64,000 nt of DNA from Myxococcota bacterium (GCA_036337435.1 JAYZEG010000058.1:160001-224000), one strand, 5' to 3'. Positions 53,120 to 59,579 are shown, numbered from the stretch's first letter. Numbers and translations are program-made. Notes: generated by a model from the letters alone, not told the origin.

Positions 53120-54235
53120 TTGACCGATCTGCAAGAGCGATCGAAGCTAGACGACATGTCAAAGCCTACGACCAAGCGGGCGAAAAGTGCCCACCTCGAT
53201 AAGAAAAGCATCAGGTCCGAATTGTTTTGGGTTGTTGGCTTGACGTTGGTGGTCACGGGTGGCTTGGCAGCCGCTCAATTTTCAATCGGTTGGATCAGAG
53301 AGTATATCTTGGCGGCTGTCGCTGCTCTCTTCTTGTATCTGCCCCTAGAAGTCCTTCATAAAAAAGGAATAGACCCCGCCGATTTCGGCATTAGCAGTAA
53401 ACCAGTTTGGCGGTCAATCAAACACGCTATTTGCGTCAGCATGATCATATTTCCCGGGTATTTTGCTGTCTACCATGTCTGGCAAACCCAGTGGCTCAAT
53501 AATCAGGTCAGAGAAAACTATGAGCGTCTAGATAAATGGCCGATGGAGATCCAAGACCGACCGAAAGTCGCGGACATGCAAGAGGGTGCTGTACGACTTT
53601 ACACGGAAGGCGAACTATTTTGGATTCGCTGGCACTTGCCCCCCGGGCAACAGTTCCATCTCCGCGCCAAAAGCGATGCTGTTTTAGAAACTCACGTGAG
53701 CAGACCCTATCATCGCTCTGAAAAAGAAATTAAGTATCGAGGGCCAAGCGATGGACGAGTTGCGTTCAAAACATCAGGTCAAAACCTCACACTTAACATT
53801 CAAGCCGGTGGGGATGAGCTTCCTGCAGACAGGTTAAAATTAGGTGCAAGTTTAAAATCAGCTGATGAAAATCCGATTTCATTTCACCGCAGTTATTGGT
53901 GGATCATTAATTTACTACTCGTCCAATTTTTACTCGTGGCACTCCCTGAAGAAGTTTTCTACCGAGGTTATCTTCAAACCAGGCTTGACCAACTGTTTCC
54001 AAAGCAAACGAAAGTGATGGGCGTCGATGTAAGCGTGATGAGTCTATTTCTGACCAGCTTGATCTTTGCTGTTGGACATTATGTTACAGTCCCATCACCG
54101 CATAGACTCGCTGTCTTTTTTCCAAGCCTACTCTTCGGATGGATGAGAAAAGCAAGTGGTGGAATACTCGCCCCCCTGATCTTTCATGCCCTTTGTAATC
54201 TTGCCGTTGAATTCGCATCTATGAACTATCACTAG
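53120..54235 (+). CDS. CPBP/CAAX-II intramembrane glutamic endopeptidase, myxosortase (MrtC)-like
   Basis: ALPEEVFYRGYLQ, FAVGH, RLAVFFPSLLFGW, FHALCN. Confidence 0.85.
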   Translation: MTDLQERSKLDDMSKPTTKRAKSAHLDKKSIRSELFWVVGLTLVVTGGLAAAQFSIGWIREYILAAVAALFLYLPLEVLHKKGIDPADFGISSKPVWRSIKHAICVSMIIFPGYFAVYHVWQTQWLNNQVRENYERLDKWPMEIQDRPKVADMQEGAVRLYTEGELFWIRWHLPPGQQFHLRAKSDAVLETHVSRPYHRSEKEIKYRGPSDGRVAFKTSGQNLTLNIQAGGDELPADRLKLGASLKSADENPISFHRSYWWIINLLLVQFLLVALPEEVFYRGYLQTRLDQLFPKQTKVMGVDVSVMSLFLTSLIFAVGHYVTVPSPHRLAVFFPSLLFGWMRKASGGILAPLIFHALCNLAVEFASMNYH

Positions 54236-54246
54236 GCCCGCCAAGT

Positions 54247-54651
54247 TCAGCGAGTCGCTTCAAGTTCTTTCACGCGTTTGAAGTAAGTGTTGCGATCATA
54301 CGGCTCATTGAGAATATGAAATTCTTTTCGAACAAGACCGACGCAACCGTAACAATAGGTACAATTCGAACAATCTTCGCAGTGGGATAAATATTGACTG
54401 TCTACGCAACGAACACTGTTTTTCGTATGGCTGCAACCGTGACAATCCGTACAACGATCAATGTGCGTGCAATGCGTGCACCGCGAACTAGACTGAGCAT
54501 ATTGACAGGCATAACAGGACTCACAGTCATCACAAAACATGCACTGCACACAACCTGTGCAGCCATCTGCGCTAAATGAATCAACATTACCCCGTTCGCT
54601 CAATTTCGTTCGAAGGGCTCTTAATTCTGACTCAAATTCCCTGCTATCCAT
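54247..54651 (-). CDS. small Cys-rich (CxxC-repeat) cytoplasmic protein
   Basis: 18 Cys in period-3 register, ending CYGCVGL..KEFHILN; GAGG SD before MDSREF. Confidence 0.8.
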   Translation of the reverse strand: MDSREFESELRALRTKLSERGNVDSFSADGCTGCVQCMFCDDCESCYACQYAQSSSRCTHCTHIDRCTDCHGCSHTKNSVRCVDSQYLSHCEDCSNCTYCYGCVGLVRKEFHILNEPYDRNTYFKRVKELEATR

Positions 54652-54808
54652 CAAATAAACCTCACTTTGAGGGCACACTAGCGATGGTAGGTTGAGTGTG
54701 CAAGCAATGATATTAAGCTGTTATTTGAAGCGGATGCACAATGCTCGTTACATCTAGACTTTAGCCCTGTAATTTAGATGATAGAGTGTCGGCCAAAAGG
54801 TTTTAAGA

Positions 54809-55690
54809 ATGTCTCTAACAGAAGCGAGCATTGATACTGAACCGGAATCATCTCGTGATGAAACCGCAAACATCGCACTCTTGGTTACGATTCGTGGTCC
54901 AAAACTCGGCCAGAGACGAATTCTGGACCCACTCACGAAAGGGATAAGACTCGGTCGGGACGAAGGCGCAGATATTCCCCTCAATGATGACAGTGTATCT
55001 CGGTTTCATTGTGAGATTATTCGAGAGGAATCGGGCTGGTTTATTACCGATTTAGGCAGTACTAATGGGACCTATTTAGGTCATCAAGTCGTCGATAGAG
55101 CCCCCATCGAAAACGGTGACCTAATCAAGGTCGGCGCGACCATATTTAAGTTTTTATCTACAAAAGACATCGAATCCGCTTTCCACGAAGAAATTTACAG
55201 GATTGCCATCATAGACGGACTCACTCAAATCTATAACAGCCGCTACTTAGATGAGTTTCTAAATCGAGAAATTAGCCGCTGTCGGCGACACGGTCGACCC
55301 ATGTCACTCATCATGTTCGACCTAGACGGTTTCGAAGAGATTAACGAACAATTCGGTCAATTGTCAGGGGATCATGTTTTAAAATTCATCGCAGGAAAGT
55401 TGAATCGACGCATCAGGCGAGAGGAACTATTCGCACGATACAGAGCGGATGAATTCGTTGTCGCCCTCCCAGAGACCGATTTAGACGATGCCCTTAAGTT
55501 CGCAGATATAATAAGAGAGAGCGTTGAAATTATGCCCATCGCATTCGACGGCTGGAAGATACCGGTGAGTATTAGCGTGGGTGTCGGGCGCTTCGATCAT
55601 AAAATGACAAAAGCATCAGAATTACTCGACAATGCCCACGACGCATTAAATCGAGCAAAAGCTAAAGGTCGAAACCAGGTTTCCAGCTAA
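54809..55690 (+). CDS. FHA + degenerate GGDEF domain protein
   Basis: FHA: LGR, VSRFH, DLGSTNGT; GGDEF fold with DGLT.IYN.R but RADEF at the A-site. Confidence 0.88.
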   Translation: MSLTEASIDTEPESSRDETANIALLVTIRGPKLGQRRILDPLTKGIRLGRDEGADIPLNDDSVSRFHCEIIREESGWFITDLGSTNGTYLGHQVVDRAPIENGDLIKVGATIFKFLSTKDIESAFHEEIYRIAIIDGLTQIYNSRYLDEFLNREISRCRRHGRPMSLIMFDLDGFEEINEQFGQLSGDHVLKFIAGKLNRRIRREELFARYRADEFVVALPETDLDDALKFADIIRESVEIMPIAFDGWKIPVSISVGVGRFDHKMTKASELLDNAHDALNRAKAKGRNQVSS

Positions 55691-55697
55691 TACAACC

Positions 55698-58600
55698 ATG
55701 CGAAGGTCCACTTTTTTTGTCTTATTAATCATGGGTTGCTCCGGTAGTTCATCTTTTCAAAGTTGCTCTAGCGAGACCGATTATCAGTTTACGAGAACAG
55801 CAACAAACGTGATCGACGATAGCGTTCAAGGCGTCATAACATCACGAGGTTTTGACTTTATTTATGAAAACAGAGAAACGCTCGTAGGCTTGCTCTTCAA
55901 CATCGATTCAAATGGATGGGCGAGTATTCCAATCTCTGATTTTGGCCGAGATGGCGACAGCATCTCAGTTGCAGCCCGAGACTTAAATCTCGGGGTCGAA
56001 CTGCGCCGAGCAGAATTTGGAATCGAACTACTACCAAATCCATTGGCAATCCGAGTCGATATCCAAAATGCTCGACTCCGATTTAATGCCGGTATAGCGA
56101 GCATCATGGGACTATTCAACGGTGCATGCCTGCTGGGTAATGGGGTTGATCGAGACTCATTAAACGCATCTTTTGCATTGGTGGATTTAACAGTCATCCT
56201 CTATCCATCCATCGATTTGAATGGTTTCTTGAAAACGCGAGTTGAAGTCGAAAATCTCGTTTTAAGCGACATTAATGTAGACTTTATTTTCGATGAGGCA
56301 CTGCCGGAATGCCGCACTTCAAATTGTGCGACTCTTTGCAGCACAGGCGAGCTCGGTGCCGCAGTCACCGAAATTCTCTATGAGGCTTTCAGGGAAGAGA
56401 TCGGCTCATTGATTACTCCCGTGCTCGAAATTATCGTCAACGAGACCCTTGATGAATTAAACGACACGCCACTTCTGTTTGAGGGAGAATTACTTCCAAG
56501 TATTTTGTCGGCTGTTCTGCCATTGCCCCGAGATGCCCTTAAAATAGGTGTGTTGTTGGAACCAGGTTCAAATGCAATAGAGTACATCGCTGGAGCGAAC
56601 GAAAATCCAGGTATTGGTCTGAGATTAAACATTGGGACCGATGGACACGACCATCCATGCGTTCCAGAGCAAGTAGACGAACCTGGATTCCTATCAGGTC
56701 CTGTACCAGACTTGAGCGGGTCTGATCCAAACGGCAACCCAGCCCACTTCGGCATAAGTGTTTCTAATGGCACCATTAATCGGCTGATATGGAGTTTTTG
56801 GCGAGGTGGATATTTGTGCCTTAGACTCGATTCAGACCAAATTGAATCGAGCCTTGGAAGTCGAATCGATTCAGACACATTGTCCATTTTTTTACCGAGC
56901 TTGGCGACCCTCGCGAAACAATCAAAACCCATCATGGTGGTCATTGACCCTGGGTTTAGTTCATCAGATTTCCCACTCACGAAACTTAATAATGTGGAGA
57001 CAGCCGCGTCGATTCCACAAGCGGGCATAGAAATGAAATTGCCTCGACTGGGAATCGATATGTACGTCTATCTCAATGACCGATGGACCCGGATGACTCA
57101 AGTCGTTACCGATGCGGAAATGGATCTTGTGATTCAAGCAGGGGAAAATAATGAACTGATTCTGACAGGTGAAGCACCACGGATTGGGGAGATTCGTGTG
57201 ACCTACAATGAACTCTTAGAATCCGATGATGTCGAGGCGTTATTGAGAGCCATGTTGGATGTAGCAGTTGGTGCATTTTTAAGTGATGGACTCGACTTTG
57301 ACTTCTCTCTGACGGGTCTTATATCGAGAAGCACAGGCCTACCCTATGACCTCAATATCTCGACCATTTCTTCAACGGGAACCGATGGGGACCACCTTGG
57401 GATTTATATGAATCTCATACCTGAGACCAGTTCAAATGCGCTTCGAAGACAAATCCAAACCTGGGCCGAAATTAAGGCTATCAATGGATACGATGCCCGG
57501 CTCAAGGTACGCTCTGAAGGCATTGACAATCCTGCATATCAGTATCGATTCAATGGTGGTATCTGGAGACCAATCCGAGAGGCAGACAGCGGCATCCTAA
57601 GCATTTCAGAACCTCGGTTTGGTCTAAAAACGACACAATTTTTAGAGGTACGAGCTGTAGACAAAGATGATCCGAAAAGAGTCGACCATCGACCAGTAAG
57701 ACTCGTTTATCATCCCGACCTAAACGAGCATTTAAAAGACGAACCTTTATCGAGTGGTCATGGTTGCAACTCAAATCCAAATCGCAATGGTTCAAACATA
57801 GTCTTCTGTCTAAGTGTTTTGATTCTATGTCATCGACGGTTTCGAACCAGGTTAGTGACAGCCATTTTTCTAATCCTGTTCGTTGGGGCTTGCCAAGGTC
57901 CGTCAAAGGCACCTGACTTACCGTGTTCAACGGACGCAGAATGTCCCAGTGGACTTGCATGTCTAGATGACTTTTGCCGGCCTCAGAAACCATGCCAAAC
58001 AGACGATCAGTGCTGCGCCAAGCAAGTCTGTCAACAAGGGAAATGTCGATCCGCACCAACCGATGACTGCCAGAATTCTGGATGCCTAACACACCAGGAC
58101 TGTATCGATGATTACTGTGTCGCACGCGAGTGTGAACAAGATTCTGAATGTCGTGGTGCAAAATGCGTCCGAAATCTATGCCTTGAAAGCACACCATGTG
58201 GCGACCGTTGTACGCCTGAAGAAACCTGTGTTCCTCATCGTAACGTGTGTCGAATTCTCACAGGAAATTGCGCACAGACATGCCCAAGTGGTTCGGTGCG
58301 AGTCGCGTTAAATTCAAGTCAATTGAGTCAATCTGTATGCGATATTGAGGCGGTTGTCTGTGAATGTCTAAGTGCCTTTGGGCAGCATGTGGGTGCCATC
58401 GCACGCGAGGCGGACATGGCAATTGTCGAGGGGCAGCCTGTCTTTGCCGTCTTCGACGCATTCTATGAAGACTTGGTTTTGATCACCGGGCTCGGCACCG
58501 ACTTGGAATCTCATTATTACATGGATGGATTTCCGTCCTCGATAGACCAACCGACACCGAGTTTGACACGCTATGGAGAACAACTGGCGGGTCCTGTGAC

Positions 58601-59579
58601 AGGACTCTATCCACAAGTTGAATCCGACTCCGCAGGGCGCTTGCACTTTGCCTATTACGACGCAGATGAGAAGCATCTGCGATACATGAGACGAGACCGA
58701 CAAAACCGCTGGACAGGTCCAATTGTGGTCGATGATAGCGGCGACGTTGGCCACCATGTCAAATTAGAGATTGATCACCTCGACCGCCCTCACTTGGTCT
58801 ACTCCGTATTCAGTGATCCCAGAGGTCAGGATGGACTGAGGTATGCGTTAGGCTCCAACACAGCAGAAACTCGGTCTCACTTTGAAATCGTAAACATTGC
58901 ATCTGCACCGAGCCAAGGACCAGCTGGGCCATTGAGAGAAAGACCAACCCGTTTCGGTCAAAGACCGTGTATGTCGCTCGACGGTGATCAAGTGGTCACA
59001 GCATTTATGGATGGTAACGAAAAGTGGCTCTACATCGCCCGAGGCGGTTCACAGGGCTTCCGTATCGAACGCCTACGGGGCCGATTGGATGAATCGAACA
59101 TTAGGGTCCAAGATGAGCGTTATGAGGATTTCAATACCCATGAGATTGGTGAACATTGTGCGATCAAGTCACGCAACGGCACGATCGATCTCGCTTTCAC
59201 CAATGAACGAACTTGGGCACTCATGAGTTACCATGGCTCCATCGACGGCCAAGGCATCATTCAAGTGGTTGATTCGGGCCCTAAGGAGCAAAGAACAATG
59301 ATCGGCTCATCACCCGCGTTGGGATTCGTTGGCAACAATAAACTCATTGCCCTCTATCAAGACTCAACTCGCAATGACCTCTTGATGAATATTAGAGAGA
59401 ATGAACAATGGCTCGAGGAGCCGGTCGTTATCGAGTCGAACGGGGCTGTTGGTTATTCTAATAGTCTAGAAATCCAACAAAATGAGGCTTTGATCGGCAC
59501 TGTTAAATTCGTCACGGATATTGGAGGACGTGACCTGAGCCAGATTTTATTTATCCCCGTCAATCTCAGCGGATATTGA
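55698..59579 (+). CDS. large surface (poly)protein: lipoprotein/BPI-like region + internal MYXO-CTERM-like signal + second lipobox + Cys-rich repeats + beta-propeller
   Basis: 1293-aa uninterrupted ORF; lipobox IMGC; GHGC-x-TM-RRFRTR-TM-VGAC at aa 687-732; C-x5-C repeats; 'GRLHFAYYD', 'VG....LEID....PHLVY'. Confidence 0.75.
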   Translation: MRRSTFFVLLIMGCSGSSSFQSCSSETDYQFTRTATNVIDDSVQGVITSRGFDFIYENRETLVGLLFNIDSNGWASIPISDFGRDGDSISVAARDLNLGVELRRAEFGIELLPNPLAIRVDIQNARLRFNAGIASIMGLFNGACLLGNGVDRDSLNASFALVDLTVILYPSIDLNGFLKTRVEVENLVLSDINVDFIFDEALPECRTSNCATLCSTGELGAAVTEILYEAFREEIGSLITPVLEIIVNETLDELNDTPLLFEGELLPSILSAVLPLPRDALKIGVLLEPGSNAIEYIAGANENPGIGLRLNIGTDGHDHPCVPEQVDEPGFLSGPVPDLSGSDPNGNPAHFGISVSNGTINRLIWSFWRGGYLCLRLDSDQIESSLGSRIDSDTLSIFLPSLATLAKQSKPIMVVIDPGFSSSDFPLTKLNNVETAASIPQAGIEMKLPRLGIDMYVYLNDRWTRMTQVVTDAEMDLVIQAGENNELILTGEAPRIGEIRVTYNELLESDDVEALLRAMLDVAVGAFLSDGLDFDFSLTGLISRSTGLPYDLNISTISSTGTDGDHLGIYMNLIPETSSNALRRQIQTWAEIKAINGYDARLKVRSEGIDNPAYQYRFNGGIWRPIREADSGILSISEPRFGLKTTQFLEVRAVDKDDPKRVDHRPVRLVYHPDLNEHLKDEPLSSGHGCNSNPNRNGSNIVFCLSVLILCHRRFRTRLVTAIFLILFVGACQGPSKAPDLPCSTDAECPSGLACLDDFCRPQKPCQTDDQCCAKQVCQQGKCRSAPTDDCQNSGCLTHQDCIDDYCVARECEQDSECRGAKCVRNLCLESTPCGDRCTPEETCVPHRNVCRILTGNCAQTCPSGSVRVALNSSQLSQSVCDIEAVVCECLSAFGQHVGAIAREADMAIVEGQPVFAVFDAFYEDLVLITGLGTDLESHYYMDGFPSSIDQPTPSLTRYGEQLAGPVTGLYPQVESDSAGRLHFAYYDADEKHLRYMRRDRQNRWTGPIVVDDSGDVGHHVKLEIDHLDRPHLVYSVFSDPRGQDGLRYALGSNTAETRSHFEIVNIASAPSQGPAGPLRERPTRFGQRPCMSLDGDQVVTAFMDGNEKWLYIARGGSQGFRIERLRGRLDESNIRVQDERYEDFNTHEIGEHCAIKSRNGTIDLAFTNERTWALMSYHGSIDGQGIIQVVDSGPKEQRTMIGSSPALGFVGNNKLIALYQDSTRNDLLMNIRENEQWLEEPVVIESNGAVGYSNSLEIQQNEALIGTVKFVTDIGGRDLSQILFIPVNLSGY

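Follow-up and report, generated by a model that had tools for sequence, protein, structure and literature searches.

A MYXO-CTERM-like tag followed at once by a lipoprotein signal inside a Myxococcota open reading frame: candidate precursor of two lipid-anchored proteins

Described systems with internal sorting signals

The closest described system is MYXO-CTERM/myxosortase sorting (TIGR03901, TIGR03382; MrtX, MrtC, MrtP), in which tags with a tripartite layout of Cys, helix and Arg cluster occur many times per genome in proteins with an N-terminal signal peptide. MrtX cuts the tag of TraA in a Cys-dependent manner, and lipidation has been proposed to come first (Guo et al., PMC11980579). The same paper describes a mid-protein MYXO-CTERM in MXAN_5598 of Myxococcus xanthus, read by the authors as a two-gene fusion whose N part is processed and anchored, which stands there as a proposal only; by their account, C-terminal tags are functional in mid-protein positions as well (Guo, Haft and Wall, mBio 2025, PMC11980579).

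We analyzed a Myxococcota open reading frame of 1293 residues, located in a stretch of 64,000 nucleotides (the window), that likewise carries a MYXO-CTERM-like tag inside the protein (Table 1). MXAN_5598 has an outer-membrane barrel with OmpA as its C part, and no second lipoprotein signal is named in the passage that describes it, whereas here a lipobox comes at once and the two parts are BPI-like and a propeller. Moreover, unlike the single case of MXAN_5598, the family offers fused, split and tag-less forms for comparison across a phylum, i.e., natural controls. The tripartite layout, the N-terminal signal peptide, the presence of MrtP and the many tags per genome are shared with described MYXO-CTERM proteins, but the tag is internal, in this copy below detection, and belongs to an N protein that also has an N-terminal lipobox. 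Compared with Sec/SPII lipoproteins (Lgt, LspA), the second signal has the same basic n-region, h-region and lipobox Cys, which in homologues precedes a polar, Asp-rich stretch, yet it lacks a free N-terminus and forms the second arm of a hairpin.

One open reading frame processed at an internal membrane signal is also found in an ArtA substrate with an internal tripartite motif (so described in its title), in NCBIfam 'midcut-by-XrtH' (compared by name alone) and in Bradyrhizobium fbcH, the cytochrome b/c1 precursor. They use other enzymes, and each has a single signal, not a lipoprotein signal placed directly behind a sorting tag. To our knowledge, examples of bacterial polyproteins that housekeeping export enzymes process are scarce.

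A literature search (MYXO-CTERM, TULIP/BPI in myxobacteria, internal lipobox, polyprotein) found no paper on a tag directly followed by a lipobox or on this family, table rows and some relevant papers lying outside the search. The initial annotation had called the locus the best candidate for an undescribed system. This was too strong, as MXAN_5598 provides a published case of an internal MYXO-CTERM (in the part of PMC11980579 cited above); what stands is the direct succession of tag and lipobox, for which we found no paper. The tag-lipobox junction is a variant of known sorting systems, not a new system. It bears on whether Lgt and LspA tolerate a signal whose N-terminus is not free, and on whether a myxosortase cuts an internal tag, as PMC11980579 proposes for MXAN_5598. 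Annotation tools would overlook the second protein, since a lipoprotein signal is expected at the N-terminus.

Table 1. Features of the fused open reading frame and its upstream neighbors (positions within the window)
Feature	Position	Strand	Basis or remark
Myxosortase MrtP gene, predicted processing enzyme for the tag	53120..54235	+	NF040674, 383 bits (cut-off 250)
Cys-rich ORF, 143 aa, between mrtP and the FHA-GGDEF gene	54247..54678	-	no family match; retained in several relatives
FHA-GGDEF gene, ends 7 bases upstream of the fused ORF	54809..55690	+	conserved neighbor of the orthologue group
Fused ORF, 1293 aa, 142.0 kDa	55698..59579	+	no Pfam match, no genuine NCBIfam family match
N-terminal lipoprotein signal, lipobox I-M-G-Cys14	55698..55739	+	pattern match
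BPI/LBP/CETP-like two-barrel tubular lipid-binding (TULIP) domain, ~aa 39-576	55812..57425	+	AF2 model, Foldseek, structure alignment, weak PF02886 in relatives
Fibronectin-III/Ig-like domain (FN3), ~aa 583-676	57444..57725	+	structure alignment
Gly689-Cys690 with the signature Cys of the MYXO-CTERM-like tag, where lipidation and myxosortase cleavage are predicted	57762..57767	+	conservation
Hydrophobic helix 1 (I701-C711), tag helix	57798..57830	+	sequence
Basic loop H712-R718 (HRRFRTR), putative tag tail and n-region of second signal	57831..57851	+	homologue loop composition
Putative internal lipoprotein signal, h-region L719-A731 and Cys732 (V-G-A-C)	57852..57893	+	pattern, conservation, counterpart is the N-terminal signal of split C genes
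Cys-rich repeats, aa 742-890; missing from short homologues	57921..58367	+	sequence, model, DUF7107 in relatives
Seven-bladed beta-propeller, ~aa 897-1293	58386..59576	+	AF2 model, blades counted from strand list, structure alignment

Conservation of the tag-lipobox junction

The junction begins with G687 at 57756 and ends with Cys732 at 57893, Cys690 being encoded at 57765-57767, and the tag lies 580 residues from the C-terminus, with 575 residues after the Arg loop, so it is not terminal. The residues quoted for it initially (Gly-Cys690, helix, Arg loop, second helix, lipobox) are all exact, no stop codon interrupts 57756-57893, and the N-terminal lipobox at Cys14 is present by pattern match. 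The signal of the C half passes the lipobox rule and has a basic n-region and an h-region, at an internal position instead of an ORF N-terminus. A Pfam search with the whole 1293-residue protein gave no match, and a ClfA match in NCBIfam was discarded as spurious and due to low complexity.

With the N half as query, matches were found in 38 of 41 genomes (relatives and its own). A 31-row profile matched in 93 of 151 genomes across the phylum (E <= 1e-10), counting also weak matches to shorter BPI-like proteins that are not part of the fused family, and 808 proteins of a 50%-identity library matched at E <= 1e-30. The best 150 of these 808 clusters comprise 108 with the C half fused on, 32 that stop at a terminal tag and 10 fragments or other forms. 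The family comprises two paralogue groups, with one copy of each in this genome. Fused forms carry the source labels Bradymonadales, Lujinxingia, Polyangia, Kofleriaceae and Labilithrix, a form ending at the tag comes from a Myxococcaceae MAG, and close homologues carry Myxococcales MAG labels. Cultured carriers of the family are Lujinxingia (WP_127780922.1, WP_146973426.1) and Labilithrix luteola (AKJ09_09059).

We compared the gene with four public runs; the labelled ones are marine or seawater metagenomes, and the junction lies outside the coverage of X3 and the RNA run X17. No indels relative to the gene were listed in any of the four. A contig of the independent marine metagenome run X2 spans 57478-57933 with two substitutions and no gap, and a contig of run X1 covers 57762-58456, also ungapped. 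The initial annotation had named reads with a stop or frameshift at the junction as counter-evidence; the X2 contig crosses it without a gap. An assembly error or a recent stop-loss accident joining two genes would fit the existence of two-gene versions that a frame shift sets apart from the fused form, but is hardly credible given independent contigs free of indels, 108 fused clusters less than 50% identical to each other among the best 150 of 808 matches, and fused proteins in named cultured species. The RNA run was rejected as evidence of expression, as it holds one contig with 223 bases of the C half and DNA carry-over is possible.

Cys690 and Cys732, on whose conservation the initial reading depended, are both invariant in 14 of 14 fused orthologues. 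In a larger alignment (A3), the equivalent of Cys690 is present in 31 of 31 rows, which were trimmed to end at that Cys. Column conservation in the 14 fused orthologues averages 0.35-0.49 for linker, helices and loop, compared with about 0.54 for the folded domains. In these alignments the junction is conserved in its predicted signals, not in its sequence.

Hairpins were then scored with one rule for homologues and control, its lipobox part being a PROSITE-type pattern. Among the 108 fused clusters from the best 150 of 808, which had been picked by N-half similarity, 106 had scorable hairpins; the control comprised 557 internal helix-basic-helix hairpins in ORFs of this genome. In the homologues, [GSA]C precedes helix 1 in 103, a strict lipobox is found in 91 and both in 89, and the corresponding numbers in the control are 23, 10 and 4. 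The pairing of tag and lipobox at the junction exceeds chance. Three of the four control hairpins with both signals come from the gene itself, from its paralogue and from a trypsin/C-type-lectin gene of contig C95, where a tag with 19.6 bits on TIGR03901 (cut-off 20) is followed by a lipobox. The tag-lipobox junction recurs in more than one family.

Of the 15 homologues that miss the strict lipobox, most have a near-lipobox Cys, as judged by eye. Gly, Ala or Ser precedes the second Cys in 104 of 105 homologues, and mostly Ser, Gly or Asp follow it. The loop between the helices has a median of 7 residues with 4 Arg/Lys and about 0.08 acidic residues (106 homologues). In 14 of the 91 lipobox-bearing homologues no other Cys occurs within the next 40 residues, so the second Cys is not merely part of a Cys-rich region. 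Moreover, some second helices measure only 8-9 residues from Arg to Cys, too short for a permanent membrane span and normal for a lipoprotein signal, which favors the signal reading. The N-terminal lipobox rule was passed by 115 of 131 complete homologues. A further count, 136 of 169 homologues with both signals, is an undercount caused by a search window that clipped the tag, and we do not use it as a statistic. The junction is real, ancient and widespread. Many Polyangiales-type homologues (the P0264-P0351 group) have an atypical lipobox, S-Q-G-C or S-E-G-C, followed by Cys-x-Cys.

Split and tag-less relatives and scores of the tag

Both arrangements envisaged at the outset for homologues occur: the fused GC-TM-Arg-TM-lipobox junction is retained across Bradymonadales- and Polyangia-labelled relatives, and there are split two-gene forms with the same two signals. 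At 11 loci the halves are adjacent overlapping genes, each C gene bearing a lipoprotein signal of its own, with a stop/start overlap of ATGA in ten and GTGA/TGATG in one. In six of them (L028, L030, L033, L039, L040, L090) the N gene ends after the tag, and the C gene has, from the overlapping start on, its own Met, basic residues, an h-region and a lipobox; tail and leader are longer in L039. Since the split loci carry exactly these units, the fused junction corresponds to a terminal tag plus a lipoprotein signal minus its Met. At the other five loci (L102, L114-L117) the N gene is devoid of FN3 and tag, and the C gene overlaps it by ATGA. The tag is hence dispensable in this lineage, where the N protein has lost both; a myxosortase is still encoded in three of three tested genomes with tag-less loci.

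The tree of 98 genome loci contained 85 fused forms, 8 ending at the tag and 5 tag-less ones; two of the eight (L099, L107), labelled split, have no partner in the DNA examined. Left out were loci with frameshifts away from or across the junction (L026, L044, L110), distant short relatives (L113, L118, L119) and rows covering fewer than 500 profile positions. Split forms appear as scattered tips among fused ones, with at least 7 changes in an unrooted FastTree tree of 98 rows and 4 in an unrooted IQ-TREE tree of 32 rows. A single split clade was not rejected by the AU test (p 0.0755, log-likelihood 902 lower), and with this result and unrooted trees either fusion or fission may have been the direction of change.

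The TIGR03901 model, proposed initially as a check, did not match the tag of this copy, nor did TIGR03382, and two home-built tag HMMs, from 17 terminal tags of this genome and from 32 homologous terminal tags, gave no match at 5 bits or more. For this reason we do not count this copy among the MYXO-CTERM members. Elsewhere in the family, 14 of 28 fused junctions pass a curated cut-off (TIGR03901 or TIGR03382), the other 14 being below both, and 3 of 4 split tails are above the curated cut-offs. The genome-specific model does score the paralogue (17.9 bits) and the gene on contig C95 (20.1 bits). The tag of this copy is unusual for an Arg in the linker and two extra Cys in the helix. It has the invariant signature Cys, the helix followed by an Arg-rich cluster, the N-terminal signal and a myxosortase in the genome; terminal placement is absent here and is found in 32 of the best 150 (of 808) homologue clusters. 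By layout and positional homology, not by score, it is to be called MYXO-CTERM-like. It is a divergent positional homologue of the scoring tags and probably works like one.

Two further genes of this genome have the same junction. The paralogue (L124:4232-8398, minus strand), on the same contig outside the window, encodes 1388 residues with the same N half, the tag-Arg-lipobox junction and a propeller. An unrelated open frame of 1182 residues on contig C95 (L123:3543-7091, plus strand) combines trypsin, MopE repeats and C-type lectin. Several junctions gave weak matches, up to 21.8 bits (cut-off 37), to NCBIfam NF058595, a 'lipo-invert putative C-terminal anchoring domain', for which a literature search found no paper.

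Folds, proposed processing and alternatives

Structure searches with AF2 models bore out the guessed folds, i.e., a BPI-like N half and a C half with Cys-rich part and propeller. The N-half model (pLDDT 81) matched 1bp1 in Foldseek (E 1.4e-16) and aligned with human BPI over its full length (Z 17.7, rmsd 4.0, 439 of 456 BPI residues); CETP and LBP also aligned. It shows the two tubular barrels joined by a central sheet, i.e., the boomerang fold of BPI/LBP/CETP in the TULIP superfamily, and bacterial two-TULIP P47 and OrfX matched as well; it differs from BPI/LBP/CETP by an identity of only 12-14% and as a predicted bacterial lipoprotein with FN3 and sorting tag. The FN3-like domain after the BPI-like part extends over about 85 residues (Z ~8 to FN3 domains). 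PF02886 (LBP_BPI_CETP) gave no match in this protein and weak ones in 3 of 31 members (best E 0.0003). The best ESM Atlas matches were only unnamed Myxococcota clusters below 0.9, and one at 0.80 with PF01273 in 21% of its members is a lead only. The family brings a full BPI-like two-barrel fold into a widespread bacterial family, and P47/OrfX structures among the fold matches are prokaryotic precedents to a two-barrel TULIP. A 2017 review stated, in the passage on this point, that there was no evidence yet for TULIP dimerization in prokaryotes (PMC5507252). Shorter BPI-like proteins (~560-700 residues) with terminal MYXO-CTERM were seen at L113, L118 and L119 and among the weak profile matches; they often occur two to three per genome in other families and belong to a wider bacterial BPI-like family.

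The C-half model (pLDDT 87.5) consists of Cys-rich repeats, with DUF7107 matching this region in 7 of 28 members, and a seven-bladed propeller. The latter matched CylK (Z 30.3) and the fucose lectins PLL/PHL/BP39L (Z 27-29) at 7-12% identity. As the lectin match has 10-12% identity and is tied with the unrelated enzyme CylK, we assign no function to the propeller.

From the sequence, its conservation, the split equivalents, the folds and the presence of the enzymes, we propose that the fused gene probably encodes a precursor that is cut into two lipid-anchored proteins, with both signals working. The two-in-one reading of the initial annotation is thus supported by the conserved Cys pair, the retained join, the natural split versions and the confirmed folds. 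The precursor would be an N protein with a complete MYXO-CTERM-type tail, in frame with a C lipoprotein whose signal lacks only the start Met. Topology, lipidation, both cuts and surface delivery would proceed as follows, with the hairpin steps derived from established Sec topology rules. The N-terminal signal would drive Sec export, Lgt would lipidate Cys14 and LspA would cut. Helix 1 would stop transfer, the Arg loop would remain cytoplasmic, and helix 2 would restart export, now of the C half, which would put both Cys690 and Cys732 on the periplasmic side, the place of action of myxosortase and Lgt/LspA. Lgt and LspA at Cys732 would release a propeller lipoprotein of 562 residues (62.0 kDa, aa 732-1293). 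MrtP, cutting after the (lipidated) Cys690, would free a BPI-like protein of 677 residues (73.9 kDa, aa 14-690) that, owing to its N-terminal lipobox and C-terminal tag, would bear lipid at both ends, and a hairpin of 41 residues (4.6 kDa) would remain. Either cut alone would separate the halves. Fusion would replace the translational coupling of the split forms and give 1:1 synthesis.

LspA and Lgt are encoded once each in the genome, and mrtP lies two genes upstream of the fused ORF. MrtP is introduced as the Bradymonadales myxosortase in the part of the Haft preprint concerned with it (10.1101/2023.06.07.544157). We rejected its adjacency as a sign of a dedicated system, with mrtP found at only three relative loci (L023, L024, L028) and most other flanks being short. 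In our literature search, no paper that demonstrates Lgt/LspA processing of an internal lipobox came up.

Other fates of the precursor have to be weighed. MrtP might be unable to cut a tag tied in a hairpin, or the tag of this copy might have decayed, and only the lipobox would be cut; the C half would then be freed, and the hairpin would keep the BPI-like half (aa 14-731, 78.5 kDa) in the inner membrane, perhaps as a periplasmic lipid-handling tether. The missing HMM match of this copy and the existence of a tag-less lineage are in line with this, as is the finding, in the relevant part of Guo et al. (PMC11980579), that surface localization is not fully lost without MrtX. We nevertheless regard this outcome as unlikely: Cys690 is invariant, [GSA]C stands before helix 1 in nearly all fused homologues, and a plain anchor would not need that Cys. 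It is rather improbable that cleavage is absent altogether, i.e., that the gene product is one inner-membrane protein with a two-helix hairpin, both halves periplasmic and its cysteines lipidated or disulfide-bonded but uncut. Such a topology would work, fused forms are maintained across the phylum and atypical lipoboxes occur at some junctions, but split orthologues make the same two units separately, and second helices of 8-9 residues, the small residue before the Cys and the lone Cys of Cys-poor forms fit peptidase recognition better.

The C protein could also arise without proteolysis, from an internal start codon or recoding near the junction. Codons available in frame are TTG at L708 and GTG at V720, and coupled starts occur at this point in split relatives. 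The orthologue alignment, however, shows no conserved Met at the junction, and initiating internally would leave the N protein without an end, which makes this route very improbable.

Judging from the fold models, the BPI-like half may bind or shuttle lipid or LPS at the cell envelope, with the propeller as a binding or adhesion partner, an assignment we offer with some doubt. It is conceivable, though we would not assume it, that Myxococcota routinely reuse a hairpin of sorting tag and lipoprotein signal as a polyprotein junction, with myxosortase and Lgt/LspA each working on a mid-chain signal and two lipid-anchored envelope proteins made in fixed ratio, here joining a doubly lipidated BPI/LBP-like protein and a propeller for surface lipid or LPS capture.

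Two observations concern the neighborhood. The FHA-GGDEF gene adjoins or is near the orthologue-group gene at most loci of this group, including the tag-less lineage, and its GGDEF motif reads RADEF in the window. In the paralogue group, the fused gene is followed at L041, L064, L067, L069, L071, L076 and L077 by one more propeller gene, separate from it and apparently equipped with a lipoprotein signal of its own.
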